Positions 12,431 through 36,661 of a DNA stretch of 64,000 nucleotides are shown in pieces. The notes under the pieces are model-generated. The model was not told where the DNA came from, did no database searches, and was given only the letters and a program-made list of their open reading frames with translations. The stretch is taken from the IMG/VR virus record IMGVR_UViG_3300042319_001922, positions 20,362 to 84,361 of that record. One strand, 5' to 3'. The stretch comes from a virus. Position 1 is the stretch's first letter, and each line of letters begins with the position of its first letter. The position numbers were made by a program, and so were the translations under genes.

Positions 12431-12436
12431 ATAATT

Positions 12437-12488
12437 CTCCTATTAAGCGAGTTTACTACAGGACCCGGCCTATCCAGCGTCCTATGTA
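12437..12488 (-). promoter_or_regulatory. Structured 5' leader with ROSE-like SD hairpin
   Basis: Hairpin followed by CUCGCU-UAAU-AGGAG; the U(U/C)GCU motif can pair with the SD. Confidence 0.55.
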
Positions 12489-12505
12489 CTATTATATATG
12501 ATATC

Positions 12506-12524
12506 TATGTTGCATTGCAACATA
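12506..12524. promoter_or_regulatory. Operator-like palindrome overlapping a -35 (PhaR-box-like)
   Basis: TATGTTGCA-T-TGCAACATA perfect 9-1-9 inverted repeat; minus strand TTGCAA-N18-TATAAT. Confidence 0.6.
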
Positions 12525-12596
12525 AATTTCTAGTGTTTGATCACTAATTTTTGGTATAAACCTTGTGAACAATAAATAAAAACATAGGAGAACACT

Positions 12597-12902
12597 ATGT
12601 TTAACAAAATTAAAGAATTATTGTTTGGTAAACCAGCTCAGACTGTTGCTGAAGTACCTTACAAGGTTGAAACACCTGTGGTGGACACTGCTGATATTGC
12701 TCTGGCACAACTGCCTGCCGGCGGCGCAGAAATTGCAGACCGAACTACTCAAGCAGTGGTTGAAGGATCTACAAACAGGGTAGAAAAACCTGCGGCCAAG
12801 GCAGCATCACCTGCGGCCAAGGCACCTGTCAAGAAGCAACAGTTTGAAAAGAAAGCAGCGCCACCAAAACCTCGAGTACCCCGAAAACCTGTTGCAAAAT
12901 AA
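12597..12902 (+). CDS. Hypothetical protein with Lys/Ala/Pro-rich basic tail
   Basis: AGGAG RBS, AATAAATA motif upstream, terminator downstream. Confidence 0.75.
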   Translation: MFNKIKELLFGKPAQTVAEVPYKVETPVVDTADIALAQLPAGGAEIADRTTQAVVEGSTNRVEKPAAKAASPAAKAPVKKQQFEKKAAPPKPRVPRKPVAK

Positions 12903-12926
12903 AAAGCCCCGAAAGGGGCTTTTTTA
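12901..12926. terminator. Intrinsic terminator, bidirectional
   Basis: AAAAAGCCCC-GAAA-GGGGCTTTTTT between convergent genes. Confidence 0.9.
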
Positions 12927-12982
12927 TAAGTGCTGGTTACGCAAATCCAGCGACACGCTATTTTGTGTCCGATTTCTAAGTA

Positions 12983-13738
12983 TTAATCAATTGCTTGGCT
13001 GACTAGATGCGCCCAGGCTCGATTGGTTTCAATGCCCGGATGGAATTTATCACCGTTGTAGTCGTTGGCTGCATAAGCCATTTCATAGATACCGTTGCGT
13101 TGCGAATCAGAGAAAATCCATCTTGCCCAGTCTATGTCATGAATCAAGGGCTGTAGTTCTGGATATTTCAGCACACCAAAATCTCCATTGGGACTACAAT
13201 GATCTTGATGGTGCCAGTAGTTCACATAGCTCATGAAATGGTAGGGTATGCCCCGAGCTTTGAGAAAATTCTGAGTTTTAACAATCTCCAGGAGATTGGT
13301 ATGAGCCAGACTGAGATTTGAGCTAACACGATACATAGGCTTGAACAAGTCTGTAGCATCTGAATTCAATGTCCAGGGACCAAGAAACCCACCACTAAAA
13401 ATATAGCCTAGGGTATTAGGGCCTGACTCCATCCGTCGATAAAACTTGTATCTATCAAACAGTGCATGCAAGCTGGGTGTGCTGATGTCAGTTAAAAAAT
13501 CTAACCTGCTAACGCCCGACCACATGATCAGCACATGATCTGTTGTGCCAGGATTTTGTAACACGTGCCTAACTACACTGTTGGCTATGTACAGGTTGCC
13601 TGCGCCAGGCTCAGCTAGATTAGTAATCTCAAAATCTGGGCGCAGTTGTTGTAATGGAGTGGGCCAACATACATTTTTCGGACTGCCTGGATGTTCGGGC
13701 CAGTGTGTAAAACTGCAACCAGATATGAGTATTTGCAT
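12983..13738 (-). CDS. SGNH/GDSL-like protein
   Basis: SGCSFT block I, NLAEPGAGN, C-terminal DKFHPG. Confidence 0.65.
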   Translation of the reverse strand: MQILISGCSFTHWPEHPGSPKNVCWPTPLQQLRPDFEITNLAEPGAGNLYIANSVVRHVLQNPGTTDHVLIMWSGVSRLDFLTDISTPSLHALFDRYKFYRRMESGPNTLGYIFSGGFLGPWTLNSDATDLFKPMYRVSSNLSLAHTNLLEIVKTQNFLKARGIPYHFMSYVNYWHHQDHCSPNGDFGVLKYPELQPLIHDIDWARWIFSDSQRNGIYEMAYAANDYNGDKFHPGIETNRAWAHLVSQAID

Positions 13739-13751
13739 TTTTGTGTTTGAT

Positions 13752-14756
13752 TTACTTGATCTGTGTCCAAACACGCTCACGGATCTGTTTTGTCAAACTG
13801 TCCGGCAATGCTACATAGTCTAAGTCTGCGGCATCTTTCTTGCCGTTCTTAAATGCCCAATCAAAGAACTTTAGTACTTCATCACTGTTAGCTTTGTTGG
13901 CAGGAGTCTTATACATGATAATGAAACTTGCTGAACTCACAGGCCAAGCATTAGGATTCTTTTGATCCACAATACTCAGGCCCATACCAGGCACGCTAAA
14001 CCAATCAGCACCATCTGCGGCTGCGGCAAATGTTAAGTCATCTGGACTAACATACTTGCCACTCTTGTTCTGTAGTTGTAGGAATGTCATATTGTTTTTC
14101 TTAACATACGCATATTCTACATAACCTATTGAACCTTTGATGCGGTTCACGTTGGCAGCAACACCTTCATTGCCCTTGCCACCCACTGAACTAGCAGCAG
14201 GCCATTTAACAGCAGCGCCACGACCTACACGTTGTAGCCACTCAGGACTTACTGTGGCCAAATAGTCTGTCCAATTGAATGTTGTTCCACTACCGTCTGC
14301 ACGATGTACAATGGTGATGTTTTCGTTAGGCAGGTTCTTACCTGGATTCAATGCTGCTAATTTAGGATCATTCCACTTGGTGATGTTGCCCATAAACACT
14401 TCGGCCATGACTGGTCCAGTGATGCGTAGTTCGCCTGGCTTGAAACCGTCTAAGTTGACAACAGGAACTGTTCCGCCAATGATGGCAGGAAACTGTACTT
14501 GTCCCATCTTGTCTAAGTTCTCACCACTGACAGGTGCGTCTGTAGCACCAAAGTCTACGGTCTTTGCGTTGATTTGTCTAATACCACCTGAACTACCGAT
14601 GCTTTGATAGTTCATACCAGTACCTGTGGCTTTTTTGTAGCCTTCAGCCCACTTGGCATAGATCGGAAATGGGAAGGTAGCGCCTGCTCCAGTAATGTCT
14701 GCGGCTTGTGCTGACATTGTTAATGCGGCTAATAAAATTGCTAGTAATTTGTTCAC
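13752..14756 (-). CDS. pstS: Phosphate ABC transporter substrate-binding protein
   Basis: ITGAGATFPFPIYAKWA, NYQSIGSSGG, DFGATD, HRADGSGTT, GGKGNEGV; signal peptide. Confidence 0.98.
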   Translation of the reverse strand: MNKLLAILLAALTMSAQAADITGAGATFPFPIYAKWAEGYKKATGTGMNYQSIGSSGGIRQINAKTVDFGATDAPVSGENLDKMGQVQFPAIIGGTVPVVNLDGFKPGELRITGPVMAEVFMGNITKWNDPKLAALNPGKNLPNENITIVHRADGSGTTFNWTDYLATVSPEWLQRVGRGAAVKWPAASSVGGKGNEGVAANVNRIKGSIGYVEYAYVKKNNMTFLQLQNKSGKYVSPDDLTFAAAADGADWFSVPGMGLSIVDQKNPNAWPVSSASFIIMYKTPANKANSDEVLKFFDWAFKNGKKDAADLDYVALPDSLTKQIRERVWTQIK

Positions 14757-14798
14757 GGTGAATCTCCTTGTTGTGACAAACTTATTTAGGCTAAATCA

Positions 14799-14817
14799 TG
14801 TTACAATTTTGTTACAA
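14799..14817 (-). promoter_or_regulatory. Pho box upstream of pstS
   Basis: Minus strand TTGTAACA-AAA-TTGTAACA: direct repeat with an 11-bp period, like the PhoB-binding TGTCA repeat. Confidence 0.8.
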
Positions 14818-14819
14818 AA

Positions 14820-15536
14820 CTATGACCAGTATTTAGATGAATCTAACCGGTCCCAATATGCTTTATTGTTACGGTTGACAAAATTTTTGATTAGGTATTT
14901 GCCCATGCCAAGATATCCCATCTTTTTGAATCTACGACTATCCTGCCCAAAGTGATGACGAACAATTCTAAACTTTTTAGGACTGTATTTGCGACTTAAG
15001 AAGAAATCTTCGCTGGTGGAAAACTGTTCAGGGAAGCCGCCAAACTCTTCAAAACGATCTCTGCGTGTTAGCATAAATGCTCCAACGGCAAAAGGGGAGA
15101 AGAATTTTAGTGTGTGATTGATTACGTTAAATGCTGTAAATCCAATCATGGCTCTTGGGTCTCGATCATAACATTTGATGTTTAATCCAATGAGGTCTAG
15201 ATTCCTAGACTCTATCATATTAACAGCATCGTGGATAACAGTATCCTTGAAGAAGCGAACATCAGCATCAATGAACAAGATGTAAGGAGTAGTGACTAGC
15301 TTGGCTCCGCGGTTCTTTGCAACAGATACAGGACCACCGTCGATAACTTCAACATTCAGTTCACCTTTCATTATTTGAATAACTTCGCGTGTGTTGTCGG
15401 TTGAGCAGTCAGCAATGATAATTCTGGTGTTGCCTATGGATTGCTGACGCAAGTGCATTAGCAAATGTGCAATGTAGTTTTCCTCATTCTTGCAAGGAAC
15501 TACAATGGTAATTTTATCGCTTATTGTCGTTTGCAT
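14820..15536 (-). CDS. GT2 family glycosyltransferase
   Basis: TIVVPCKNEE, IIADCSTDNT, AKNRGA, FIDAD (DxD), EDF. Confidence 0.9.
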   Translation of the reverse strand: MQTTISDKITIVVPCKNEENYIAHLLMHLRQQSIGNTRIIIADCSTDNTREVIQIMKGELNVEVIDGGPVSVAKNRGAKLVTTPYILFIDADVRFFKDTVIHDAVNMIESRNLDLIGLNIKCYDRDPRAMIGFTAFNVINHTLKFFSPFAVGAFMLTRRDRFEEFGGFPEQFSTSEDFFLSRKYSPKKFRIVRHHFGQDSRRFKKMGYLGMGKYLIKNFVNRNNKAYWDRLDSSKYWS

Positions 15537-15691
15537 TGTCCTTCTACCTTAAAATTATTAAACTTTAGCTGCCATTTCATTGACGCCAAGGTCATCTCGC
15601 AACTTAGTTGATCTTTGAATGTTAGTTCTATTCTTCCGGGAATGTCCTGAGGGTTGTTCACGTGAACTGCTATCAGTATCAGTAGCCACAT
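15521..15691 (-). CDS. Small 56-aa ORF overlapping both flanking genes (not in ORF track)
   Basis: MWLLILIAVHVNNPQDIPGRIELTFKDQLSCEMTLASMKWQLKFNNFKVEGQCKRQ*, preceded by GGAGAAAGACA. Confidence 0.6.
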   Translation of the reverse strand: MWLLILIAVHVNNPQDIPGRIELTFKDQLSCEMTLASMKWQLKFNNFKVEGQCKRQ

Positions 15692-16439
15692 TGTCTTTCT
15701 CCTTGGTCCAAGTTATAATTTCCCAACGACCGTCCCAGTGTTCCACCAGTGCTGTACAGGATTCAACCCAATCACCGTCATTCATATATGCTACGCCGTT
15801 GATCTCTTTGATCTCTGCATGATGTATGTGTCCACAGATGACACCATCAAATCCACGTTTCTTGCAGTAGTTGGCCAAGTTTTCTTCAAACTTGAACACA
15901 AAGTCTACTGCTTTTTTAACCTTGTACTTAAGATAACGGCTAAGGCTCCAGTAGCCAAACCCCAAGCGACGACGTACCCAATTAAACTTATTGTTGAGTT
16001 CAAGAACAAAGTCATACGCTTTATCTCCCAGAAATGCTATCCATGGTGCCAGACGGGTAATGCCATCAAACAAGTCTCCGTGTACCACAAGATAGTGCTT
16101 ACCGTCTGCACCTATGTGCTCTGTCTGATTGTGTATTTCTATTAGGCCAAATGAGAAACCATACGGTATCATGGGTCTTAAGAACTCATCGTGATTACCA
16201 GCAATGTACACAACGCGAGTACCACGCTTGGCATGCCCCAGTACTCTACGTACCACATTGGTATGACTTTGTTTCCAACGCCATTTGTTTTGCTGTATCT
16301 TCCATGCATCTATTATATCACCTACTAGATATAATGTATCACATGAGTTGTGTTTGAGAAAGTTGTTGAGACGATCGGCTTGACAATCTTTGGTTCCAAG
16401 GTGGACATCACTGACAAAGATTGATCGATAAGTCTTCAT
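15558..16439 (-). CDS. plcP: PlcP-like metallophosphoesterase (phospholipase C; LpxH-related family)
   Basis: SDVHLG, LVGDIID, GNHDE, HGDLFD, LGDKAY...GYWSLS, GHIHH, NDGDWVESCTALVE. Has GNHD rather than the LpxH GNRD; Pho box upstream. Confidence 0.8.
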   Translation of the reverse strand: MKTYRSIFVSDVHLGTKDCQADRLNNFLKHNSCDTLYLVGDIIDAWKIQQNKWRWKQSHTNVVRRVLGHAKRGTRVVYIAGNHDEFLRPMIPYGFSFGLIEIHNQTEHIGADGKHYLVVHGDLFDGITRLAPWIAFLGDKAYDFVLELNNKFNWVRRRLGFGYWSLSRYLKYKVKKAVDFVFKFEENLANYCKKRGFDGVICGHIHHAEIKEINGVAYMNDGDWVESCTALVEHWDGRWEIITWTKEKDNVATDTDSSSREQPSGHSRKNRTNIQRSTKLRDDLGVNEMAAKV

Positions 16440-16459
16440 CTAGTATTTAAGACAAAGAC

Positions 16460-16478
16460 TGTTACAACTTTGTTACAA
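16460..16478 (-). promoter_or_regulatory. Pho box upstream of the plcP-like gene
   Basis: Minus strand TTGTAACA-AAG-TTGTAACA; 18/19 identical to the pstS box. Confidence 0.8.
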
Positions 16479-16499
16479 ATTCACAACGTAACAGAATAT

Positions 16500-17345
16500 C
16501 TACTTTTGACTCAGGTGTTCTTTTGCCCGAGTTGCCACCCAATCAGCAGTGATTAAATCAAAGTGATGGCCATCACGTGCACGATCTCGAGATTTAACTG
16601 GCACAACTGTGGCATACACTGATTGACGTTTTGCCAAATTGTCTCTGAGTTCGTCTAGTCTTCCGTGTAAATTTTCTAGCTCGTGTAATATCCAATCCGG
16701 TAATGAATTTAATTCTTCTACAGTAGCTGGAAAATTTACTGGCCAATCTGAGCCACGCATTGACTCCCAGGCATCAAGAATTGAATTACGGCAAAAAAAA
16801 GGTATTGCAAACTGCACAGAGTTTGCAATCAAATCAACTCTTTTTTTGCAATCTAAAAAATTTACCCAGTCGTCGTGATCAGTGCTGTCAATATTGTGAA
16901 TTCTTCGAAGCTCGTCACTGAGTAACGTATTGGCATTTTCCCGACGATGCGTGTAACTCCACATTATTGCAATCTGCGTAGGATCTATAGCGTGAACAAT
17001 GTTTTCTGTGATTCTTGCAATCCATTCATTACTGGCACCATCCATTGATACATTTATGATACGTTGATTGGCAGCAGTTGACAACAGATATGGCCAGGTG
17101 TGTTCTAAAGGAGAACCCAGCCCCACAGTAAAGCTGTCACCAATACACCACACAGCGTCACGCAGGTCTTGCATGTTATCTGGCCATTCTTGATCACGAA
17201 AGCCGCGACTGTTGTAGTTGTATGTTATGCTATGTGGATAAGATAAAAAGTGATTCTTATCCTTGCAATGATCAAAAGAATCTATTCCTGAAAATTCACA
17301 GTGCTGATTTACACGACTAGACAGTACTAAATTGTGCAATATCAT
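16500..17345 (-). CDS. SGNH/GDSL-like protein
   Basis: YNSRGFRD, IGDSFT, NVSMDGASN, DGHH. Confidence 0.65.
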   Translation of the reverse strand: MILHNLVLSSRVNQHCEFSGIDSFDHCKDKNHFLSYPHSITYNYNSRGFRDQEWPDNMQDLRDAVWCIGDSFTVGLGSPLEHTWPYLLSTAANQRIINVSMDGASNEWIARITENIVHAIDPTQIAIMWSYTHRRENANTLLSDELRRIHNIDSTDHDDWVNFLDCKKRVDLIANSVQFAIPFFCRNSILDAWESMRGSDWPVNFPATVEELNSLPDWILHELENLHGRLDELRDNLAKRQSVYATVVPVKSRDRARDGHHFDLITADWVATRAKEHLSQK

Positions 17346-17363
17346 ATCACAATTTTGTTACAA
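17345..17363 (-). promoter_or_regulatory. Possible third, degenerate Pho box
   Basis: Minus strand TTGTAACA-AAA-TTGTGATA abutting the start codon. Confidence 0.45.
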
Positions 17364-17366
17364 TGC

Positions 17367-17873
17367 TCAACTGTTCAACACCTTGGCAACACTATTCATA
17401 ACACTGGCAATACGCCCGATATCACGTAGGTTTTCTACAGTATAGCCTTCTTGTTTGAGTGTTTCGTAATGTGCTTTCACACAGAAGTGACACTTGCCCA
17501 CAATACTTGCTGCCAAACTGAATGCTTCAAAGTTGCTCTTAGTTGTACCGCCATGGCTAGCAATGGCATTCATTCTCAACTGTGCTGGCAAACCTTTTAG
17601 AGCAGGATCGTCAACCATCTCAATGTAGGGATACCATACATTGTTCTGTGCCATGATGCTGGCAGCAGTCATTGCTGACTCTGCATGTACTGGTGCGTCT
17701 GCTAGCAAGATGCTTAGAACTTTGCCATTGCCAGTTGCTGCCAGTGCGGCCACAGCACAACCCATGGCCACATCAGCATCTAGAGTACTGCGAACTAGAA
17801 CAGCATCCAAATTTAACTTGGTGTCCTTGGCATAATCTGGCAATGCACCTTTTACTGATTCAATAAAACTCAT
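17367..17873 (-). CDS. ahpD: Alkylhydroperoxidase AhpD
   Basis: LPDYAKDTKLNL, MAQNNVWY, LRMN, SIVGKCHFCVKAH (CxxC). Confidence 0.93.
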   Translation of the reverse strand: MSFIESVKGALPDYAKDTKLNLDAVLVRSTLDADVAMGCAVAALAATGNGKVLSILLADAPVHAESAMTAASIMAQNNVWYPYIEMVDDPALKGLPAQLRMNAIASHGGTTKSNFEAFSLAASIVGKCHFCVKAHYETLKQEGYTVENLRDIGRIASVMNSVAKVLNS

Positions 17874-18909: not shown

Positions 18910-18910
18910 G

Positions 18911-19546
18911 TTAATATTTCCCTGATGCTAAAACAATTTGGCAAATGTGTTCTAATCGTTCGATGTGCTCAAACGCACGCCATGGTGTTGTGTCAATAGC
19001 AACTACACCGTGACCCTTAATACCCACAATGTCAAAACCAATTGTTCCATCTTTTTGTAGCCACAAATTTTCATGACAACGATCAGCAAGTTCTTGACTG
19101 ATAGGTGGAACATCGCCAACGTTCTTGGCCACTCGTGTATAGCGGCTAAGTTCTGGAAAGTCATCAACAATGGTACTCAAATCAATTCCGGCGTGCATGG
19201 CTGCAACACAGTAAGTAGGATGCAGGTGAACCACCACTCTAACATCGTTACTGTGCTGTCCCATGTTCTTCTGCAAACCAAAGTGCAATGGTAGTTCACC
19301 GCTTGGCTTTAGATTAGCACTGATATCAGTATAAGGAAGCTCGATTGCAGTAGGAGTAGTGTGACTGCCATTGCTGATACCAATCTTCTTAAACTGATCA
19401 GGTTGCATGGTCTGCTTACGGACGCCACTGGGTGTGATATAAAAGTGATCACGGTCGTGATGACGAATACTCACATTGCCATCACGACTGGTAATCCAGT
19501 TGCGTCTATATGCTTCAACAAGTGTGTCGCATATAGTTTCTAACAT
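18911..19546 (-). CDS. Class II aldolase/adducin-family metalloenzyme
   Basis: DGNVS, ITPSG, PSGELPLH, HLHP, GHGVV. Confidence 0.88.
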   Translation of the reverse strand: MLETICDTLVEAYRRNWITSRDGNVSIRHHDRDHFYITPSGVRKQTMQPDQFKKIGISNGSHTTPTAIELPYTDISANLKPSGELPLHFGLQKNMGQHSNDVRVVVHLHPTYCVAAMHAGIDLSTIVDDFPELSRYTRVAKNVGDVPPISQELADRCHENLWLQKDGTIGFDIVGIKGHGVVAIDTTPWRAFEHIERLEHICQIVLASGKY

Positions 19547-20085
19547 TACAGTGTCTCGCCGCCCACTGTGCGGTTGCAAGCACACAGTTCGCCTGTTTGC
19601 AATGCGTCCAATACACGAAGCGTTTCTTCTGGGCTACGACCAACGTTCAAGTTGTTAACAGTAACGTGTTGGATTTCATTGTTTGGGTCAACAATGAATG
19701 TTGCACGAAGTGCGGCACCTGCTGGAGCATAGAATACACCCAACTGCTCAATCAAGCTCAACTCACCACGCTGTGTATCAGCAAACTGGTGGTGTGTGAT
19801 TTTACGCAAGTCATCGTGACTCTTTTGCCAGGCCACTTTGCAGAACTCATTGTCTGTTGAACCTGTTAGCAACACTGCATCACGATCAGCAAAGTCTTGT
19901 GCCAACTTGTCGTAGGCCACAATTTCTGTGGGGCAAACAAATGTGAAATCCTTGGGGTAGTACACAATTACTTTCCACTTGCCAGGGAAGCTGGTTGCGG
20001 TGATGTCATAAAATGCATCATCAGGTTGTCCGGGCTTGACGCCTGTGACTGTGAATGGGGCCAATTTATCGCCAACTGTTTTCAT
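19546..20085 (-). CDS. ahpC: 2-Cys peroxiredoxin AhpC
   Basis: YYPKDFTFVCPTEI, RATFIVDP, VGRSPEETLRVLDALQTGELCAC. Confidence 0.96.
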   Translation of the reverse strand: MKTVGDKLAPFTVTGVKPGQPDDAFYDITATSFPGKWKVIVYYPKDFTFVCPTEIVAYDKLAQDFADRDAVLLTGSTDNEFCKVAWQKSHDDLRKITHHQFADTQRGELSLIEQLGVFYAPAGAALRATFIVDPNNEIQHVTVNNLNVGRSPEETLRVLDALQTGELCACNRTVGGETL

Positions 20086-20187
20086 TTTAGTTTCCTTTGT
20101 GTTAAAATGTTGAGTCTCAGTGTTTGTACTGAATGTTTATTGTAATAGTATATATCTATGAAATCAAGTAAATCTTAGATTTTTCCT

Positions 20188-20224
20188 ATTGAATTTTTCT
20201 ATAAGGTCAATTGGAAAAATTAAT
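20188..20224 (-). promoter_or_regulatory. OxyR-type (LysR) binding site upstream of ahpC
   Basis: Minus strand ATTA-N7-CAAT-N7-ATAG-N7-CAAT versus the consensus ATAG-N7-CTAT-N7-ATAG-N7-CTAT. Confidence 0.65.
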
Positions 20225-22667: not shown

Positions 22668-22684
22668 AGCAATTCCCGGTAAAG

Positions 22685-23242
22685 TTATTTTGTTAGTAAT
22701 TGTAACACGTTTTCCATTATATCGCAAGTGAGATTTGGCAATTCTTGGTAATGTTTACCAAGATCAACAGCGTGATCTACCAGAACGTATTGTGTAGTAG
22801 GGTTATTCTGGAACAAACTGCGCATGAGTCCATGATAATTTTGTAGTTGTTCAACTTGGTCAGATGATTCTAATTTCTGACCCAACCCAAGATCAAACCC
22901 CAACATCAGTATGATGCTGTTGGTTTGGCTGGCCAAGTGCAATGATATAATGTCATCAAATCTGTGAACTGGATGGTTGTACTCACCATCATATGCTTTG
23001 AGGCCTGGCTGGCTACCAATTTTTAGATATACATCACGAGCAACGTAAAAATTGCACACAGCATGAAATGCCTTGGAAATTAATGCATTTGCCTCAGCTG
23101 AGTCTGAGCAAACTACATTGTCTGTTTGATTGTTTTTCCAGGTGCGCCACGATCCCCAGCTGGGACCAATTGACTTGATGGCTGCTGTGTCAACCAATAT
23201 GTTTGGTTGATATGTTGATGCATATACCCAACTTATTTGCAT
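22685..23242 (-). CDS. Hypothetical protein
   Basis: Coupled ORF; IILMLGFD segment. Confidence 0.6.
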   Translation of the reverse strand: MQISWVYASTYQPNILVDTAAIKSIGPSWGSWRTWKNNQTDNVVCSDSAEANALISKAFHAVCNFYVARDVYLKIGSQPGLKAYDGEYNHPVHRFDDIISLHLASQTNSIILMLGFDLGLGQKLESSDQVEQLQNYHGLMRSLFQNNPTTQYVLVDHAVDLGKHYQELPNLTCDIMENVLQLLTK

Positions 23243-24438
23243 TATACTGCCCTTAAAGGATTCCACTGAAAGGATCCCAGGCAAACCCAAGCAAATGGTG
23301 CATCGATCTGAGGATCATTATTCAGCACTAGATCGCCACGAGTACCAGCCCAGCCCGGCACTGCATTAGAATGAGAAATTCTCCAACGGTCAATTCGTAA
23401 CTTTGGTGCTACCACAAGACCGTCTGATTCAATACTGAGGTGGCGTCCACGGTTAACACCCAAAGACAATGTGCCCGGGCGGGCCGTTCCAATGTATGCA
23501 GTGTCTTTGGCCAGCTTGCCAACAATCACGGTGGTTTCTTCGTCCCACACTGTCAGTGCCATTTCTGGGTGGTTGGTATTGATACCAACACGTTTATTAG
23601 TCACTGCAAGAGTATCATTAAATGCTGCCGGACCAGCAACATCTAGTTCTCTCAAAATTCCAAGTGCTTGTATGTTTGTGTCAGTGATTGCCGAACTCAA
23701 TTGGTTGCCAGTCACTAACGGTTGTCCATTAACAAGCACTTCAGAAAAATCAATACCTTGTGATTTACTTAATTCTAAAACCTGTACTACCAGTGACTGT
23801 TTCCAGTCCTCAGTAATTTGATTTAGAGTTTTGGCTGCGGTCTTGTCAATAACTTCGTCCCATGCTGTGTTGTCAACATTGACTACTCCGCGAACTGCAA
23901 GATTATTCACTGATAAACTGCCGCCCACTGTGATATCTTTAGTTACATCAATGTCAGTTGCCGACACTTTGTGTGCTACATTTATACCATTGTCATCAAT
24001 TGTCAATTGTAATTCTGTTGCAGTATCAGTAATACCCAGTGTTTTAAAATCTTTCTTGAACCGATCTCTCCAGCGATCAATGCCGGCGTCGATTTGACCA
24101 ACTAGCAAACTGTTAAGATCAATATTACTAATTTGTGACAGCAACCTTTGTGTCATTTGTTGATTGACTTGTGTTTCAATCTTGTTGATCCAGGCTTGGT
24201 CCAAAATCAAGTTATCAATAGTGGCAGACACCATGGTCTGTACCGCGCTATCAACAGCTTGAGTCATTGTAGAGATACTAGAAAATCTAGCAGATATTTT
24301 TTCTTCTACGAATTTAGTAATTTGTTTTTCAAGATCAGTTTGCCAATTTTTGTCAGATGTGATATCTTCAACGTGTTTATTAACTGATCGAATAAGTTCT
24401 TGTTCAACAAGCGTTGGTAATAAGTTAGGGTCAAGCAT
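23242..24438 (-). CDS. Probable virion/fibre-like protein
   Basis: Helical N-terminus, beta-rich repeats, RVGINT, C-terminal GDLVLN...WVC typical of fibre proteins. Confidence 0.5.
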   Translation of the reverse strand: MLDPNLLPTLVEQELIRSVNKHVEDITSDKNWQTDLEKQITKFVEEKISARFSSISTMTQAVDSAVQTMVSATIDNLILDQAWINKIETQVNQQMTQRLLSQISNIDLNSLLVGQIDAGIDRWRDRFKKDFKTLGITDTATELQLTIDDNGINVAHKVSATDIDVTKDITVGGSLSVNNLAVRGVVNVDNTAWDEVIDKTAAKTLNQITEDWKQSLVVQVLELSKSQGIDFSEVLVNGQPLVTGNQLSSAITDTNIQALGILRELDVAGPAAFNDTLAVTNKRVGINTNHPEMALTVWDEETTVIVGKLAKDTAYIGTARPGTLSLGVNRGRHLSIESDGLVVAPKLRIDRWRISHSNAVPGWAGTRGDLVLNNDPQIDAPFAWVCLGSFQWNPLRAV

Positions 24439-25351: not shown

Positions 25352-25866
25352 TTGTGTCCAGTAATCTGAAGAGTGTATCTAGGAGTAGTTCCTAGATTGG
25401 CTGCCAGGTGTGGTGTATCATACGACCACTCAACAACATCTCCAGCACGCCAATTTATATAGGGTTTGCCATTGCCTTCAAAGTAATGCCCCGACTGCCA
25501 ATCTTCTAGAAATATAATTGCTCTCCGAATTGACTGTTCTTGTCCTTGAAGATTAAACAAGTCAATATATTTCAGATATAAATCACTGTGCGTAGGAAGT
25601 ATGGTGCCAGTGCCCATTCTGTAGTAACTTGTGCCAATATCTTTCCAGCCCAGTAATGTGTAAAAGTCAATAAAAAGATTGTTCCACTTTGGTTGCCGGC
25701 TACGCATATCACACATGTCACCAGTAAACTTATTGGTGTATCCTAACGACAGCCAGTTTTCGAGACTGACCGAGTCGTTGAATGTTTCGTTGATATACTC
25801 TAAGTGTTTAAATTCATCATCCCAAAAAGCAGGAATGTGATACTTAACTAACTCGTGTGTTGCCAT
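25348..25866 (-). CDS. 2OG-Fe(II) oxygenase-like protein
   Basis: LPTHSD (HxD)...PHLAAN...RYTLQITG. Confidence 0.75.
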   Translation of the reverse strand: MATHELVKYHIPAFWDDEFKHLEYINETFNDSVSLENWLSLGYTNKFTGDMCDMRSRQPKWNNLFIDFYTLLGWKDIGTSYYRMGTGTILPTHSDLYLKYIDLFNLQGQEQSIRRAIIFLEDWQSGHYFEGNGKPYINWRAGDVVEWSYDTPHLAANLGTTPRYTLQITGHK

Positions 25867-27094
25867 AATGAATCACAGTTATTCCTGGAATATTGGCAAT
25901 TTTGCGCCAGGGGTCAACAACAACTGATCCGGGTTTGATATCACAATACGGCTGGGTGTCTTCTTGATCACCGGTGTATTCGTAAGTGATTTTACGGTTG
26001 TGTGCCCAAAGAAACACAGCAGGAGTATCAACAGCAGTAACCACATCAGCAGGATCGTCAGCTAAAGGATCTACATATTTGACCTGTACTCCCAGTTGTT
26101 TGAGATAGTGTCCAACCAAAGTGCTGTAGCTGCCAATACAGTATGGCACATCGGGTTTGTAGGCTTTGCCGTGAATCACAATGGGCAAGATCTTTTGGTC
26201 CTGGGTGGCAGTGTCAAACAAAAATTTGGCAAGATTTTTTGCTTGAATTTCTCTAGCATGCATCACAGTATCAAATAGGTCGTAGCCGATGTCGTACTCT
26301 TGTGCCAGCCAACGCAGTGCAATGTTGTCACGTGGATGGCAAGCACCTGCATCGCCCATGCCAGCTGTCATGTACTTAGGCCCCATGATACGCATAGTAC
26401 TACGAGCTAGTGCATCGGTTACAACATCAACATTGATGTGACCAATTTTCATAGCAAAGTCTTGAATCATGTTGACCAAGCCAACCTTGGCGCTGATAAA
26501 TGTGTTGTAGAATATTTTAATGGCTTCGCATTCATCCCAGGTACCAATCTCATAGCGCGGATTGTTCTGCATTATGCTCTTGTAGATCTCCACAAGCTCG
26601 TTGGCCAATGCATTGGGATTGCCGTCCTCGGTTCCGATCATGATCATTTCTGGATTGACCATGTCCCACTTAACTGACCCCATGGCAATCAAATACGGAT
26701 TGTATAAAAATTGATGTTTTTTATCCAACAATGGCACAAAGTGTTTCCGAGTAGTTCCGGGTAGTACAGTGCTGATCAGCACAATCTTCTTGGGAGTTGT
26801 TGCGTGGGCATTGATTTTCTCAATAGCATCTTTAACAGCATCATGTCCAAAGTCTTTTGGAGTCATGTGACTAGATGGAACACTGCCATCATACCCTTCT
26901 TGGTGTGGGGTTGGTACTGCTATAAAGATCCAATCACTGTTGTTTATGGTGTCTTCAATGCTGCAAACTTCTACCTGGTCACTTTGTCTTGGGTAAATAT
27001 CATACCCGAAAACTTTATATTTCTCTGCAAATACTTCTGCACAATCTAGGCCAAGTTTGCCAAGACCAATAAAACCCACTTTGATATCGTTCAT
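25844..27094 (-). CDS. UDP-glucose/GDP-mannose dehydrogenase family protein
   Basis: GLGKLG, IAVPTP, STVLPGTT, EAIKIFYN, GACHPRD (catalytic Cys), GKAYKP. Confidence 0.9.
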   Translation of the reverse strand: MNDIKVGFIGLGKLGLDCAEVFAEKYKVFGYDIYPRQSDQVEVCSIEDTINNSDWIFIAVPTPHQEGYDGSVPSSHMTPKDFGHDAVKDAIEKINAHATTPKKIVLISTVLPGTTRKHFVPLLDKKHQFLYNPYLIAMGSVKWDMVNPEMIMIGTEDGNPNALANELVEIYKSIMQNNPRYEIGTWDECEAIKIFYNTFISAKVGLVNMIQDFAMKIGHINVDVVTDALARSTMRIMGPKYMTAGMGDAGACHPRDNIALRWLAQEYDIGYDLFDTVMHAREIQAKNLAKFLFDTATQDQKILPIVIHGKAYKPDVPYCIGSYSTLVGHYLKQLGVQVKYVDPLADDPADVVTAVDTPAVFLWAHNRKITYEYTGDQEDTQPYCDIKPGSVVVDPWRKIANIPGITVIHYGNTRVS

Positions 27095-28409
27095 GAATGT
27101 TCCTCTTAATCAAATTTATAACTACCTCGAAGGGCTCGTCGGAGTTAATAGTACATTAATTTATCGTTTTGATCCACCGGGTAGTAAAAAAATTGGCAGT
27201 CTAACTGGGTCTAAACCTGTTACCATACCCTGGACTGAATACCAACGACTTATTGTCACTGTAATGCACGATCAAGAGCCGTTGAATTTTGATTTGTACA
27301 CTGAATCTAGCATTGGGTCTGAATTATTTCAATGGTTCCGCGATCATCGCAACGGTCAAGATGCATGGTTTACTTCCACTATGTATAACGAAATTTGCAA
27401 TCGCAATCTTGGGTTTGTGTATCATGGATCTACCACCTATGATCGAAACATCTTGGTACACAGTGAAAAACGCAGTACTGAATTGCAAAAGTACAGCAAT
27501 ATTGGGCTGGAGCCAGTGTATTGGTGGAGTCATGCCCTAATTGCACGTGACTGGTACCGATATGCAGAAATAGATCCGTTGTTGTTGCAACTGCCCACCG
27601 ATTACAAGTATGACTTTAATGTCTACAATCGAGCTTGGTCTGGCACCCGAGAATATCGATTAAAATTTACTGATCTCGTAATTGACCAAGATTTAGTACA
27701 CAATTGTAATATCGCATTTAATCAATTTGACAACAATGTGCACTATCAGAACTATGAGCTATGCAACAAGGCGTTTGCCCCAGATCATGATTTAACAGTT
27801 TTGCCCAGCAATGCCGCTAGTTCAGCTTCTAGTGCAGATTACGATTGTTATGATTATTCAATCTCTTGGTTTGATGTGGTTCTAGAAACACTATTTGATG
27901 ATCCAAGGCTTCATCTGACTGAAAAAATTCTGCGACCAATTGCATGTGGCAAACCATTTCTATTGGCTGCAACACACGGCAGCTTGCAGTATCTCAGGGA
28001 CTATGGGTTCATGACGTTTGGTGACTTCATTGACGAATCGTATGATCTAATACAAGACCCAGTGCTTAGACTAAGAGCTCTAGTCGAGACCATGAAACAA
28101 ATATCAGCACTGAGTCTTGCGCAAAAAAGATCACTAAAACAAAATATCAAACACATAACTCAGCATAACCGAGCTAGATTTTTCTCTCAAGACTTTTTCA
28201 ATCAAGTCACTCAGGAATTTGTGCACAACCATCAACACGCACGTGAAATCTGCCAGAGCCACAATCTAGGCCAAAACTACGTTGATTATCGAAAAGTAGC
28301 AAAAACTGTGCCAGCCTTGCGTGATATACTAACCTCAGACGATCAATATCGTAGCCGGACTGATCTAGCAGTGCTGTTACAAGAAATACGAAAACACCAG
28401 GGACGTTAA
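27093..28409 (+). CDS. Probable GT-B glycosyltransferase-like protein
   Basis: DVVLETLF...LTEKILRPIACGKPF...YLRDYGFMTF resembles the GT10-like nucleotide-sugar-binding region. Confidence 0.6.
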   Translation: MNVPLNQIYNYLEGLVGVNSTLIYRFDPPGSKKIGSLTGSKPVTIPWTEYQRLIVTVMHDQEPLNFDLYTESSIGSELFQWFRDHRNGQDAWFTSTMYNEICNRNLGFVYHGSTTYDRNILVHSEKRSTELQKYSNIGLEPVYWWSHALIARDWYRYAEIDPLLLQLPTDYKYDFNVYNRAWSGTREYRLKFTDLVIDQDLVHNCNIAFNQFDNNVHYQNYELCNKAFAPDHDLTVLPSNAASSASSADYDCYDYSISWFDVVLETLFDDPRLHLTEKILRPIACGKPFLLAATHGSLQYLRDYGFMTFGDFIDESYDLIQDPVLRLRALVETMKQISALSLAQKRSLKQNIKHITQHNRARFFSQDFFNQVTQEFVHNHQHAREICQSHNLGQNYVDYRKVAKTVPALRDILTSDDQYRSRTDLAVLLQEIRKHQGR

Positions 28410-28762
28410 CTTCTTGTCACAATTCCAGTCCAGTCACTGCCTGGGTCAACAATTTCAAAATCTTTAATTCGATCCAGCAATGTATCATAGAAGCTGTCCA
28501 ATTCACCTCGCCATTTGCCTTGCAAATGTTCAATTGCATCACGACAGTATTTCCAATTCTTCAATCGATAATTGATCATGAGATTATGGTGCAAGTCGGT
28601 GAATTGCGTAATGGTCAACATTTCAGTCAGCGGTATCTGTTCCATCACACAATACGCTGTGACTGGTGCATCGCTGTTGGGGAATTGCATGGTATCTAAT
28701 TCTAATACCATGTAGCGATCATCTAGTGATGAAAAATTCTCTTTGCCAAAAATTATATTCAT
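28406..28762 (-). CDS. Hypothetical protein
   Basis: 118 aa, AAGGA RBS. Confidence 0.65.
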   Translation of the reverse strand: MNIIFGKENFSSLDDRYMVLELDTMQFPNSDAPVTAYCVMEQIPLTEMLTITQFTDLHHNLMINYRLKNWKYCRDAIEHLQGKWRGELDSFYDTLLDRIKDFEIVDPGSDWTGIVTRS

Positions 28763-28786
28763 GTGTAATTTCCTTTTAAATATGTA

Positions 28787-29569
28787 TTGATGAAACTAGC
28801 CTTTGACCTTATTTCTGACTTGCATGTCAGCTCGCATACCGAGTTTGATTGGACCAGTCAAGCCACCAGCCCCATTTGTGTAGTCGCCGGAGATGTAGCG
28901 CATGATCACAGCGAACTTAGACGAGTGCTTAAACATTTGGGTAAAAATTACCAAGCAGTATTTTATATTGACGGGAACGATGAACATCGACATGCACTTG
29001 AGACACTAGACACTAACTACGCTGCCGTGCGAGCCGCAGTTGAAGGTATTGATAACGTCACATACATGCATGATCATGTTGTTATCATCAATGGGGTAGC
29101 AATTATTGCCACCAATGGTTGGTGGAGCTTTGATTGGTCCAAGCAATTCACAGTTGAGGAAACCAAGGCAGGTGTTGAGAATCATTATGGCATAACCAAT
29201 ATTGGAACATCGTTGATAGAATCTATTGCCAACAGTGATTCATTGTATCTGGATCGAAGCATAGCTAGATTACAAACCTTTAATGATGTCAAACGAATAG
29301 TTATAGTAACACACACTGTTCCCCGGGGAATATTTTTACAACACGACCCTGATCTCGCAAACTACAGAATCAATTCTTCTATCAATAGCAACATCACCAT
29401 GGGATTGAGTAGTGACACTGAGAAAAAAGTAACCACCTGGTGCTTTGGGCACTATCACTGGCCTGTTGACCAAGTGATTGACAATGTCAGATACGTGTCT
29501 AATCCACGTGGCAGAATAGACTCGCCCTGGCATCGTAACCCATATTTTCCCATACGGATAGAAGTTTAA
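28787..29569 (+). CDS. Calcineurin-like metallophosphoesterase
   Basis: ISDLH, AGD, GNDEH (variant of GNHE), THTVP, FGHYH, SNPRG. Confidence 0.85.
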   Translation: MMKLAFDLISDLHVSSHTEFDWTSQATSPICVVAGDVAHDHSELRRVLKHLGKNYQAVFYIDGNDEHRHALETLDTNYAAVRAAVEGIDNVTYMHDHVVIINGVAIIATNGWWSFDWSKQFTVEETKAGVENHYGITNIGTSLIESIANSDSLYLDRSIARLQTFNDVKRIVIVTHTVPRGIFLQHDPDLANYRINSSINSNITMGLSSDTEKKVTTWCFGHYHWPVDQVIDNVRYVSNPRGRIDSPWHRNPYFPIRIEV

Positions 29570-29880
29570 CCACCATCTGGCTCAAGTTTGATTTGCAACG
29601 GAAATCCTTTTTCCCTTGCACTAACTGTGATTTCAATTCCCTTTTGTTCGGCAATCTCGTAGGGCAACACTGCCACTGTGGCTGCACCAGCTTCGTGAAT
29701 ACTTTGTGTTATATTCTCTGCTGTTGTAACAGAATAATCAAAATGTTCGATCAAACTTTCAATTACAAAATCCACTGGAGTTGAATTGTCATTGATATAG
29801 ATCACTCGATACAACGGTGGTTCTTTAAGAGATAAGTTGGTTTTTACTCGTACTCGAGTTTTAGGGTCAGCTTGTGACAT
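29566..29880 (-). CDS. clpS: Clp protease adaptor ClpS
   Basis: PPLYRVIYINDNSTPVDFV, IHEAG, EIAEQK, AREKGFPL. Confidence 0.92.
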   Translation of the reverse strand: MSQADPKTRVRVKTNLSLKEPPLYRVIYINDNSTPVDFVIESLIEHFDYSVTTAENITQSIHEAGAATVAVLPYEIAEQKGIEITVSAREKGFPLQIKLEPDGG

Positions 29881-29890
29881 AATATTCCTT

Positions 29891-29925
29891 GAAAAACTGG
29901 GGGCAATGCGCCCCCAGTGTTATTT
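29891..29925 (-). terminator. Intrinsic terminator after hsp20
   Basis: CTGGGGGC-loop-GCCCCCAG followed by TTTTT on the minus strand. Confidence 0.75.
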
Positions 29926-30382
29926 ACGTTGGTGAAGAGTTTTCGTAAGCAATAGCAATGCTCTTGGGTTTCATTGCTTCTGGCACACGTTGCTCCAATC
30001 GTACAGTTAGGATACCGTCACGTGCGATAGCGTCCACAACTTCAACGTAATCGCCTAGTGGCCAACTACGTAAAAATTTGCGAGCACTGATGCCTTGATA
30101 ATAGTACTCATGCCCAGCTGGCAATGTAGATACACGTTTTTCGCCCACAATATTAATAACGCCTTCGCGCACAGTGATATCAATTTCACCCTGAGTAAAA
30201 CCAGCCACAGCCAGTTGTAATTCAAAAGTGTGTTCACCAGTCTTGATGATGTTATAAGGGGGATAGTTTGTACCCGATGTTGCCGATGTTTCAATTTGAT
30301 TGATAATTCTATCAAACAAGCGATCAACACCAATAGAAGTACGATACAAGGGGGATAGATCGAAAGCTGTAATTTTAGTCAT
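29924..30382 (-). CDS. Small heat-shock protein Hsp20 (IbpA-like)
   Basis: FDLSPLYRTSIGVDRLF, NYPPYNI, LAVAGF, GISARKF, DGIL, PEAMKPKSIAI. Confidence 0.96.
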   Translation of the reverse strand: MTKITAFDLSPLYRTSIGVDRLFDRIINQIETSATSGTNYPPYNIIKTGEHTFELQLAVAGFTQGEIDITVREGVINIVGEKRVSTLPAGHEYYYQGISARKFLRSWPLGDYVEVVDAIARDGILTVRLEQRVPEAMKPKSIAIAYENSSPT

Positions 30383-30389
30383 TTGTTTT

Positions 30390-30451
30390 CTCCTTTAATA
30401 AGCAAGTTGACTTTTTGTAGCCCGACTGTCGGCACTACAAGTGTATTTATA
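30390..30451 (-). promoter_or_regulatory. TATAAATA late promoter plus two-hairpin ROSE-like leader of hsp20
   Basis: TATAAATA at 30444-30451; hairpin TTGTAGTGCCGAC-A-GTCGGGCTACAA; then CUUGCUU-AUUA-AAGGAG. Confidence 0.7.
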
Positions 30452-30464
30452 ACACATTTTTTAA

Positions 30465-36602: not shown

Positions 36603-36661
36603 TATTATAGCAAATGGAGCATTTCTGGTCAACCAGAATTAGGTGTTGTATTTTTACAACA
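36603..36661 (-). promoter_or_regulatory. Repeated early promoter, copy 4, with upstream palindrome
   Basis: TTGACC-N17-TATAAT; TGTTGTA-N4-TACAACA at 36644-36661. Confidence 0.85.

Follow-up and report, generated by a model that had tools for sequence, protein, structure and literature searches.

Host-type stress-regulator elements in the accessory gene island of a T4-related lake-water jumbo phage

Introduction

Do the accessory genes of a phage carry regulatory sites through which the host's own stress regulators could govern them? This question is raised by a 64,000-nucleotide stretch of viral DNA (the window), which comprises bases 20362-84361 of one 84,361-base contig, the IMG/VR virus record IMGVR_UViG_3300042319_001922 (CheckV completeness 22%). 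Its region from about 12.1 to 30.5 kb is an 18-kb island of accessory genes, mostly on the minus strand. A first-pass annotation had proposed that the phosphate, peroxide, carbon-storage and heat genes of this island have each kept a cis-element matching the host regulator of the same gene class. Here we find that four genes or operons of the island carry cis-elements of the type that candidate Burkholderiales hosts use for the same stress class, and we consider it rather likely that host regulators act on them, so that the phage probably reads the physiological state of the infected cell. The elements are conserved across relatives of 78-97% protein identity in which flanks and spacer sequences differ.

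Control of phage auxiliary genes by a host regulator is established for PhoB in marine cyanophages. In phage P-SSM2, pstS and phoA are reportedly under the control of the host PhoBR system. According to the main text of PMC10976474, the PhoBR system of the host controls cyanophage pstS, and PhoB shifts promoters of phage S-PM2d in electrophoretic mobility shift assays (EMSA).

Results

The phage and its candidate hosts

The window belongs to a jumbo phage related to T4, which has a T4-type capsid and a genome of roughly 350 kb. Its near-complete relatives have contigs of 345-367 kb (97-100% complete), and all four of those tested encode a T4-type Gp23 capsid protein (E about 1e-100). An RNA polymerase beta-type subunit was found in none of these four, so the phage must use the RNA polymerase of its host. 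Trans_reg_C, LysR HTH_1, PHB_acc_N and Sigma70_r2 domains were likewise found in none of five records (the contig and the four relatives), in searches that detected control genomes for each family. Since the phage records lack domains of the PhoB, LysR and PhaR types, host proteins are the simplest candidate binders of the elements described below; phage proteins of another fold are possible binders as well.

A megablast comparison of 19 kb with 50,697 phage records returned no near-identical phage. Within IMG/VR, plcP, ahpC and hsp20 each have at least 599 matching stretches, pstS has 369 and the 91-aa gene described below 138. The stretch is contained in lake-water metagenomes (24 runs listed, all of DNA, with no RNA run among them). 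Upstream regions of relatives that were identical over 80-150 nt were collapsed to one before counting, and hsp20 relatives with less than 44% identity were left out of the hsp20 upstream and leader comparisons.

The closest bacterial PstS proteins, with 74-82% identity, come from Comamonadaceae (Limnohabitans, Acidovorax, Hydrogenophaga, Polaromonas, Rhodoferax), and those of Polynucleobacter are 61-66% identical to the phage protein. In a separate PstS homologue search, the best 120 matches listed were all phage-type and at least 85% identical, and gave no clue to the host.

Pho boxes upstream of pstS and plcP

The PhoB consensus consists of two 7-bp direct repeats resembling CTGTCAT, 4 bp apart, which gives an 11-bp period. 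The pstS promoters of the candidate hosts read TGTCAC-N5-(T/C)GTCAC, followed after about 10 nt by TAAAGT, TAGAGT or TACAGT. Both phage sites for which Pho-box repeats had been proposed consist of direct repeats with an 11-bp period, and at both the box takes the place of the -35 element, 11 nt upstream of the -10-like hexamer TAAATA. The features concerned (ORF, open reading frame) are the following:

13752-14756, minus strand: pstS, periplasmic phosphate-binding protein with GTG start and signal peptide (Pfam PBP_like_2, 2.5e-34)
14783-14828, minus strand: pstS promoter, with three repeats of 11-bp period (14800-14828), an 11-nt spacer and TAAATA (14783-14788), from the sequence and the host PhoB matrix
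14820-15536, minus strand: GT2 glycosyltransferase, 21 nt downstream of plcP (Pfam Glycos_transf_2, 9.9e-19)
15558-16439, minus strand: plcP-type metallophosphoesterase (Pfam Metallophos)
16444-16478, minus strand: plcP promoter, with a Pho box (16461-16478), an 11-nt spacer and TAAATA (16444-16449), from the sequence and the host PhoB matrix
17346-17363, minus strand: third, degenerate Pho-box-like site (two mismatches), abutting the ATG of a GDSL-like ORF and with no TAAATA after it (pattern; matrix score 13.5)

The exact pattern TTGTAAC-N4-TTGTAAC occurs only twice in the 64 kb, at 14800-14817 (minus strand) before pstS and at 16461-16478 (minus strand) before plcP. The degenerate pattern TGTMAY-N5-TGTMAY matches the same two sites only (2 matches against 0.33 expected), a number reached by 2 of 100 shuffles. 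These two patterns replaced a search at up to three mismatches, which did no better than shuffles (12 matches against 11.2 expected). A PhoB matrix built on candidate-host pstS sites, from the 27 of 39 host pstS loci that had a site by regular expression, ranked the plcP site first in the window (score 16.0) and the pstS site second (15.9). The third rank (14.1) fell at 24122-24142 (minus strand), inside a 398-aa ORF at 23242-24438, and is probably a chance match. The fourth (13.5) was the site before the GDSL-like ORF, which may be a remnant, unless the true start of that ORF lies further in; in two relatives (L117 and L118), a pstS gene with a Pho box occupies the position of this third site, after the CMD gene.

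In the relatives, the box was found upstream of pstS in 51 of 56 cases, and box plus TAAATA likewise in 51 of 56; for plcP the counts were 44 and 32 of 72. The upstream regions of other genes served as controls and contained none (0/73 for ahpC, 0/62 for hsp20, 0/66 for the 91-aa gene). Several of the box-less plcP genes are placed directly behind pstS, where they would share the pstS promoter. The repeats, TGTAAC in the window, read TGTAAY or TGTCAY in relatives.

The arrangement of the two parts is more rigid than their surroundings. The spacer between box and TAAATA measures 11 nt in all 83 composite promoters (51/51 for pstS, 32/32 for plcP), with a variable sequence, and the distance from TAAATA to the start codon varies from 23 to 35 nt for pstS and from 4 to 14 nt for plcP. 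In the window, 26 nt containing AAGGAG separate TAAATA from the GTG of pstS, and only 4 nt, without a Shine-Dalgarno (SD) sequence, separate it from the ATG of plcP. The first-pass annotation had read the adjacency of the two elements as a hint of dual control by host and phage; the invariant spacing instead favours a single composite promoter, a PhoB-plus-(-10) unit, over two controls that act independently. In 3.15 Mb of phage loci, 181 copies of the box were counted, 153 of them followed by TAAATA, and the ORFs downstream encode PstS, PlcP or, in a few relatives, a coiled-coil protein without known function. This last protein, which starts with MRFEDLAARL or MRLEDLAARL, lies behind Pho box and TAAATA in relatives L046, L007, L041 and L002.

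Homologues of plcP in the candidate hosts (51-54% identical, found in four of five host genomes searched, the four being Comamonadaceae) lie inside an operon behind another gene and have no Pho box of their own in four of four genomes. The box of the phage plcP was therefore not simply imported with the gene, and the notion that the phage had kept it does not hold here. The GT2 gene is probably in one operon with plcP. The succession of plcP and GT2 (14820-16439), with a UDP-sugar dehydrogenase 10 kb away (25844-27094), resembles the bacterial PlcP-glycosyltransferase pair of lipid remodelling (PMC4796936).

TAAATA as a promoter core

Of all hexamers, TAAATA shows the strongest enrichment in the 50 nt ahead of the contig's 129 ORFs, preceding 17 genes in sense against 3 in antisense orientation. 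The 84 kb contain just 39 copies, counting both strands. The hexamer precedes start codons that have an SD by 15-61 nt and those without one by 3-9 nt, and no recognisable -35 partner was seen. We conclude that TAAATA is a phage-wide promoter core. If it is a -10 element, its placement suggests that the mRNAs of the SD-less genes, plcP among them, are leaderless or nearly so. Such SD-less starts are found at 16439-16449 (plcP), near 28777 (plus strand), 33463, 51112 and 57888 (all minus strand), and at one site of the contig 16.4 kb before the window.

As had been stated, TAAATA adjoins the host-type element at pstS, plcP and hsp20. Its description as late-promoter-like fared less well: the full T4 octamer TATAAATA is not enriched (3 copies against 2.24 expected) and was dropped as a general signal, TAAATA is absent directly upstream of the capsid gene in four relatives, where the gene sits in an operon, and the genes behind TAAATA are of uncertain timing. 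At pstS and plcP, a phage late factor could make a second use of the hexamer.

A PhaR-type palindrome upstream of a 91-aa gene

The next element precedes a short gene that had been called phasin-like:

12155-12430, minus strand: 91-aa gene, an orphan encoding a helical, Lys-rich protein that is virus-restricted by the Atlas (ORF; Pfam Phasin_2 E 0.0087, below cut-off)
12491-12496, minus strand: -10 hexamer TATAAT of its promoter, read from the sequence
12507-12523, no strand assigned: 17-nt perfect palindrome with core TGCA-N-TGCA (12511-12519), covering the -35; PhaR-type operator by sequence
12530-12547, no strand assigned: second palindrome, TTAG-N10-CTAA, upstream of the PhaR-type site (pattern)

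The first palindrome covers the -35 of a TTGCAA-N18-TATAAT promoter, the -10 of which reads TACAAT or TATAAT at the same place in relatives. Its core fits YGCRNYGCR, the EMSA-validated PhaR motif of S. meliloti (main text of PMC12542648). The TGC palindrome noted in the first pass proved unique in the window in its extended form; two looser patterns were not enriched (TTGC-N3-GCAA, 3 against 2.83 expected; TAGTG-N6-CACTA at up to one mismatch, 3 against 1.83 expected). A matrix built on 15 sites upstream of host phasin genes placed the palindrome at the top of the window with a score of 26.1, the next site reaching 16.4. The host set comprised 12 phasin loci, all with Pfam Phasin_2 above cut-off, from two Limnohabitans genomes and one genome each of Comamonadaceae, Hydrogenophaga and Polynucleobacter, and ATG(C/T)TGC-N3-GCA(A/G)CA stands upstream of 11 of these 12 genes.

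Among relatives of the 91-aa gene, TGC-N3-GCA is present in 41 of 66 and the extended palindrome in 38 of 66, with no extended form in four control sets; most of the remaining relatives carry variants that differ in one base or in spacing. The second palindrome, too, is shared with the host genes: TTAG-N10-CTAA was counted in 26 of 67 phage relatives and, on the host side, upstream of 4 of 12 phaP genes (some Comamonadaceae), against 0/62, 0/74, 0/57 and 1/73 in controls (1/266 together).

The 91-aa protein itself is not demonstrably a phasin, judged by sequence comparison. An hhalign comparison of 19 phage copies with the 12 host phasins gave a probability of 0.3%, sub-threshold Phasin_2 matches appeared in only 4 of the 19 copies, and the protein has half the length of host phasins. 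Its nearest Atlas clusters are 88-100% viral, and the nearest named ones (Phasin_2, PHB_acc, PHA_synth_III_E) score 0.83-0.88, which by the tool's rating is a lead only. No host homologue was found in five candidate host genomes. Phasin homology was rejected on this evidence, which leaves the phasin label, and the carbon-storage module that depends on it, weak. The idea that the gene had kept its operator from a host does not fit a gene for which no host homologue was found.

An OxyR-type array upstream of ahpC

The peroxide gene of the island is preceded by a conventional promoter and, further upstream, by the tetramer array described in the first pass:

19546-20085, minus strand: ahpC-type peroxiredoxin (Pfam AhpC-TSA, 2.1e-21)
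20117-20132, minus strand: 5'-terminal hairpin of the ahpC mRNA, stem TCAGT/ACTGA (sequence)
20139-20167, minus strand: sigma70-type ahpC promoter, TTGATT (20162-20167), N17, TACAAT (20139-20144) (sequence)
20177-20224, no strand assigned: OxyR-type array of tetrads ATTA/CAAT/ATAG/CAAT with 11-bp period (20188-20224) and an overlapping ATAG-N7-ATCT (20177-20189), from the sequence and the host matrix

The array ends 21 nt, and the second dyad 8 nt, upstream of the -35 TTGATT. A promoter of the form TTGATT-N17-TACAAT was found by regular expression in 62 of 76 non-redundant ahpC relatives, and 61 relatives anchored on their -35 show conserved tetrads at an 11-bp period.

The OxyR consensus of E. 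coli reads ATAG-N7-CTAT-N7-ATAG-N7-CTAT. Compared with it, the phage array matches 12 of 16 core positions, with weak outer tetrads. At least 12 of 16 positions are reached by 12 of 74 ahpC relatives, against 0/56, 0/73, 0/61 and 0/67 in controls and 1.9% of shuffles. In the candidate hosts, the ahpC upstream regions read ATAG-N7-CAAT-N7-ATTG-N7-CAAT in gene orientation. Canonical ahpC was obtained from 28 of 41 genomes of the family of a Limnohabitans genome, and the 24 of these 28 sites with at least 11 of 16 matches were made into a matrix. Its best score in the window on either strand lies at 20188-20224 (18.4; the next elsewhere, 13.1). With the same matrix, 29 of 74 ahpC relatives exceed the 95th percentile of shuffles, against 2/57, 3/73, 1/61 and 0/67 in controls (6/258 together). 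It is probable on this evidence from sequence that the array is an OxyR site. Each of the three host-derived matrices, for PhoB, PhaR and OxyR, thus ranks a predicted phage promoter first in the window.

Identity between the phage AhpC and the canonical AhpC of five candidate host genomes is only about 30%, and the phage protein belongs to a different peroxiredoxin subtype. The stem of the hairpin at the 5' end of the ahpC mRNA varies in relatives with its pairing kept (CAGTA/ACTG, TAGTG/CACTA, GCAGAA/TTCTGC, AGAAC/GTTCT), by reading and without a formal count; host ahpC leaders likewise contain a palindrome.

ROSE-like leaders of hsp20 and the 91-aa gene

Two genes of the island, hsp20 and the 91-aa gene, share a leader type at the RNA level:

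29924-30382, minus strand: hsp20, small heat shock protein (Pfam HSP20, 1.5e-14)
30383-30441, minus strand: ROSE_3-like leader of hsp20, with hairpin 1 at 30417-30438, anti-SD at 30400-30406 and SD at 30390-30394 (Rfam ROSE_3)
30444-30451, minus strand: TATAAATA, an octamer of T4-late type just upstream of the hsp20 leader (sequence)
12431-12484, minus strand: ROSE-like leader of the 91-aa gene, with hairpin 1 at 12459-12484, anti-SD at 12445-12451 and SD at 12437-12441 (Rfam ROSE_3 and model R1)

Both leaders have a 5' hairpin with a conserved GCCG...CGGG core, then a YUYGCU stretch, AGGAG 3-12 nt further on, and the ATG. The pairing of anti-SD and SD requires, by inspection, a bulged G, and a bulged G opposite the SD together with a U(U/C)GCU anti-SD is a hallmark of ROSE elements. 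The Rfam ROSE_3 model matched the hsp20 leader at 30377-30441 (minus strand) over its full length with 32.8 bits (E 0.0022 in 21 kb) and the leader of the 91-aa gene at 12425-12486 (minus strand) with 20.3 bits (E 3.3). The pattern GCTTA-N1-10-AGGAG-N4-10-ATG is found in the window only at these two genes (2 against 0.13 expected), which bears out the ROSE-like SD leaders of the first pass at sub-threshold ROSE_3 scores.

Among relatives, 29 of 36 hsp20 leaders and 57 of 63 from the 91-aa gene contain YTYGCT-N3-12-AGGA; the control counts were 0/72, 0/54 and 4/73. Hairpin 1 covaries in both sets, with double changes in 6 of 10 predicted pairs for hsp20 (one pair, for example, is GC in 13 and AU in 11 sequences) and in 5 of 6 for the 91-aa gene. 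The underlying alignments comprised 24 of 29 non-redundant hsp20 leaders (L259, L260, L264, L283 and L296, of divergent layout, were left out) and, for the 91-aa gene, 39 of 63. Trained on the hsp20 leaders only, a covariance model (R1) found the leader of the 91-aa gene as its second-best match in the window, with 26.4 bits (E 0.0016), the next match scoring 17.7 bits. The 5-6 nt before the anti-SD can also pair with the AUG and codons 2-3, as GUAAAC/GUUUAC (12422-12451) and AGUCA/UGACU (30374-30412), both on the minus strand. For the 91-aa gene, 34 of 52 leaders can form this outer helix, and for hsp20 15 of 24 can, some leaders having alternative complementary pairs.

By model R1, a ROSE-like element is present in 6 of 37 Polynucleobacter genomes, and in the two loci read it is placed before hsp20, behind a sigma32-like promoter (loci L479 and L536, CTTGAAA ... 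CCTTAAATA), the -10 region of which contains TAAATA. The ROSE_3 model matched in 1 of 5 host genomes and 1 of 81 Burkholderiales, where the blanks are weak, 53-150 of hundreds of first-look candidates having been scored per genome; with the Hsp20 protein as query, a homologue was found in only one of five host genomes. In some hsp20 relatives of the phage, TTGACA-N17 precedes the TATAAATA octamer.

That the leaders act as thermometers is inferred from their resemblance to the family. According to the main text of a review (PMC4166951), ROSE elements invariably accompany small heat-shock genes, a rule from which the 91-aa gene would depart. At 30380-30469 (minus strand), the Rfam 'freshwater-2 RNA' matches weakly (23.9 bits, gathering score 49.9); its consensus ends in the SD-to-AUG stretch of the hsp20 leader, and this motif may stem from related lake phages. 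For S-PM2d hsp20, Table 2 of PMC10976474 lists a 'putative Pho box' with no PhoB binding and no low-phosphate response, and the string printed for it contains CTCGCTTAA, the stretch that forms the anti-SD here. That 'Pho box' may be a ROSE-like leader instead, and such leaders may be general on phage hsp20 genes.

Other features of the window

The island encodes, by ORFs and Pfam, the 91-aa ORF, PstS, the GT2 glycosyltransferase, the calcineurin-type (PlcP-like) phosphoesterase and two GDSL/SGNH-like ORFs, followed in the list by an AhpD-like CMD protein, a class II aldolase, AhpC, UvdE, UDP-sugar dehydrogenase, ClpS, Hsp20 and ClpX. DNA ligase, ribonucleotide reductase and helicases are encoded further along the window. 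An identical 18-nt palindrome, TGTTG-N8-CAACA, occurs three times (5275-5292, 6171-6188 and 36644-36661); its spacing is unlike that of the PhaR-type palindrome, and it may be the operator of another regulator. The window contains no LexA boxes.

Discussion

Proposed mode of action

If host regulators act on these elements, phosphorylated host PhoB would bind the Pho box in the -35 position, 11 nt from the -10-like TAAATA, and recruit polymerase, so that the genes for phosphate uptake (pstS) and lipid remodelling (plcP-GT2) would fire mainly in phosphate-starved cells. Host OxyR on the four-tetrad array would raise transcription of ahpC from its strong sigma70 promoter under peroxide stress. 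Host PhaR, bound to the palindrome over the -35, would repress the 91-aa gene until polyhydroxybutyrate (PHB) granules titrate it away. In the leaders of hsp20 and the 91-aa gene, the YUYGCU stretch would pair with the SD and limit translation until heat or another trigger opens the structure. The proposed response to host physiology is strongly supported for PhoB and PhaR and probable for OxyR, and for the leaders it is suggested by family resemblance. That each site type matches the regulator of its gene class stands for pstS, ahpC and phasin genes in Burkholderiales and for hsp20 in Polynucleobacter, and is unsupported where it relies on the phasin label of the 91-aa gene.

We would go further only tentatively. 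The phage may have built host-operator mimics onto genes that never had them (the Pho box on plcP, the PhaR operator and ROSE-family leader on the 91-aa gene) and joined the Pho box, at a constant distance of 11 nt, to the phage-wide TAAATA core, which possibly is read by sigma70 with PhoB and later by a phage late factor. The island would then be a multi-input sensor of host state (phosphate, peroxide, PHB, and heat or folding stress), with ROSE used outside small heat-shock genes. This fuller scenario is a real possibility, though less likely than not.

Weighing the evidence

Several observations speak against control by host regulators. The clues to the host disagree, PstS and PlcP being closest to Comamonadaceae and the hsp20 leader being found only in Polynucleobacter (6/37 against 0/37 by model R1 in the Comamonadaceae sample). 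The full box is missing in 28 of 72 plcP relatives, TAAATA has an A where sigma70 prefers T at -7, and in about nine relatives of the 91-aa gene an ordinary TTGAYT -35 stands in place of the palindrome. At ahpC, the E. coli OxyR consensus has no match in the window at up to three mismatches, the host sites behind the OxyR matrix were themselves chosen using that consensus, and the array coincides with phased A/T tracts. For the leaders, both ROSE_3 scores are under the Rfam gathering score of 43, RNAalifold predicted no second hairpin, and in ViennaRNA a rise from 4 to 42 °C changed the mean probability of the SD being unpaired from 0.52 to 0.61 (hsp20) and from 0.85 to 0.62 (91-aa gene), which is no thermometer-like opening. 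Finally, predicted phage Pho boxes are unreliable without EMSA and often fail, according to the main text of PMC10976474.

Two other explanations would apply to the island as a whole. The motifs might be operators of phage-encoded regulators of uncharacterised fold and merely host-like, the programme being independent of host physiology. TAAATA is after all a phage-wide signal, other palindromes such as the 18-nt TGTTG-N8-CAACA recur, the 91-aa gene has no host homologue, and a 350-kb phage has many proteins without known function. We nevertheless consider this improbable, as matrices built on host sites only rank the phage sites first in 128 kb (both strands), each box, palindrome or array occurs once or twice, at a functionally matching gene and not genome-wide, and domains of the PhoB, LysR and PhaR types were not found in the four near-complete relatives. 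Or the sites might be decaying passengers of horizontally acquired host genes and no longer relevant, as the pstS promoter layout, which mirrors that of hosts, and the loss of elements in some relatives (5 of 56 for pstS, 28 of 72 for plcP, about 9 for the 91-aa gene) would allow. Decay is hard to reconcile with elements conserved despite differing flanks and spacers, or with a spacing of 11 nt in 83 of 83 promoters. Moreover, host plcP has no box in four of four genomes, the gene under PhaR-type control has no host counterpart, and the host AhpC proteins behind the matrix sites share only about 30% identity with that of the phage; several sites therefore cannot simply have arrived with their gene, which leaves this explanation less probable still.

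The other two alternatives are local and carry more weight. The ahpC array could be phased A-tract or UP-element-like curved DNA, or the operator of another peroxide regulator, before a constitutive strong promoter: A and T runs are conserved every 10-12 bp or so upstream of the -35, the E. coli consensus fails as described, only 12 of 74 relatives reach 12 or more of 16 positions and 45 of 74 are not above the shuffle threshold with the host matrix, and the best conserved dyad, CTAT-N7-AT(A/T)G, is the junction of two OxyR half-sites and not a half-site. Yet the top match of the host-derived matrix in the window is this array, its two CAAT tetrads coincide in position with those of host ahpC sites, and the enrichment is absent in four AT-rich control promoter sets, so that we regard curvature or another regulator as unlikely, if far from negligible. 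The two leaders could be general translation or stability elements, for example a protein-binding 5' hairpin with a helix closing SD and AUG, serving timing or dosage and not temperature sensing. Lake temperatures are seldom in the classical heat-shock range, only one of the two genes is a heat-shock gene, both the sequence and the structure of hairpin 1 are conserved, the outer helix over the AUG and codons 2-3 is available in the 34 of 52 and 15 of 24 leaders counted above, and modelling gave no melting-type opening of the SD. On the other side stand the ROSE_3 match, which spans the whole model, the signature of ROSE in the form of a YUYGCU anti-SD whose G has to bulge opposite the SD, and the same element before Polynucleobacter hsp20 behind a sigma32-like promoter. 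The main text of PMC4166951 adds that nearest-neighbour models lack the non-canonical pairs on which ROSE sensing rests. For the leaders, a non-thermometer role is thus a serious contender, though not the one we expect.

Relation to known systems

Control by host PhoB has its closest parallel in the cyanophages P-SSM2 and S-PM2d, likewise lytic T4-type phages with pstS behind a host-type Pho box and under a host two-component regulator, as far as the main text of PMC10976474 describes them. In contrast to these, the box here is the proteobacterial 7+4+7 direct repeat and not the cyanobacterial PyTTAAPyPy(T/A), it additionally precedes the plcP-GT2 operon, and it stands at a fixed 11 nt from the phage's own TAAATA; for the present phage, control by PhoB is predicted from sequence. 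The pstS promoters of Comamonadaceae and Polynucleobacter likewise replace the -35 with two direct repeats of 11-bp period, followed after about 10 nt by a TAnAnT -10, whereas the phage repeats are mostly TGTAAY instead of TGTCAC, the -10 is TAAATA and the spacer has 11 instead of 10 nt.

OxyR-activated ahpC promoters also have four tetrads of 11-bp period directly upstream of a sigma70 -35 (ATAG/CAAT/ATTG/CAAT in the hosts); the phage array differs in agreeing with the classical consensus at 12 of 16 positions, its outer tetrads being weak, in its second overlapping dyad and in the peroxiredoxin subtype it precedes, with an AhpD-like CMD gene further along the phage cluster. T4 late promoters have TATAAATA at -10 and no -35 and depend on gp55. 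They share with the elements here an A/T-rich -10-only signal before many genes of a phage with T4-type capsid, but in our phage only the TAAATA core is conserved, the timing of the downstream genes is uncertain, and the core is locked to the Pho box at pstS and plcP.

Short ROSE-like thermometers (Rfam ROSE_3, RF02523), the type of Pseudomonas ibpA, likewise have two hairpins, the second masking the SD through YUYGCU, before a small heat-shock gene. The phage leaders depart from them in their sub-gathering scores, in standing on phage genes, one of them not a heat-shock gene, and in the possible extra helix over the AUG. Repression of phasin genes by PhaR (AniA) similarly works through a YGCR-N-YGCR palindrome at or next to the promoter -35 (main text of PMC12542648), with the differences that the phage protein is half as long and not detectably homologous, that its gene resides in a lytic phage, and that a ROSE-like leader is added.

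In the literature searched, main texts only, we met no report of plcP in a phage, of a PhaR site on phage DNA, of ahpC under OxyR control in a phage, or of a phage hsp20 with a ROSE element or thermometer. Material relevant to the comparison may also stand in the supplements of PMC12542648 (motif tables) and PMC10976474 (EMSA figures), which lay outside this search. The novelty predicted from sequence lies in the habitat and host group, in three inputs beyond phosphate, in a Pho box fused at constant distance to a phage promoter core, and in host-type operators on genes that did not bring them.

Biological significance

With these candidate elements, the principle of host-regulator control is extended to an abundant lake-water lineage of jumbo phages of heterotrophic Betaproteobacteria (at least 599 stretches each for plcP, ahpC and hsp20), and from phosphate to peroxide (OxyR), PHB status (PhaR) and a family of RNA thermometers. 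The promoters are clean and small fragments that lend themselves to testing, and the 91-aa gene offers a candidate case of regulatory mimicry on an orphan gene. If the sites work, the expression of phosphate-uptake, lipid-remodelling and antioxidant genes by lake phages would depend on the physiology of the host, which matters for models of viral phosphorus and carbon cycling.

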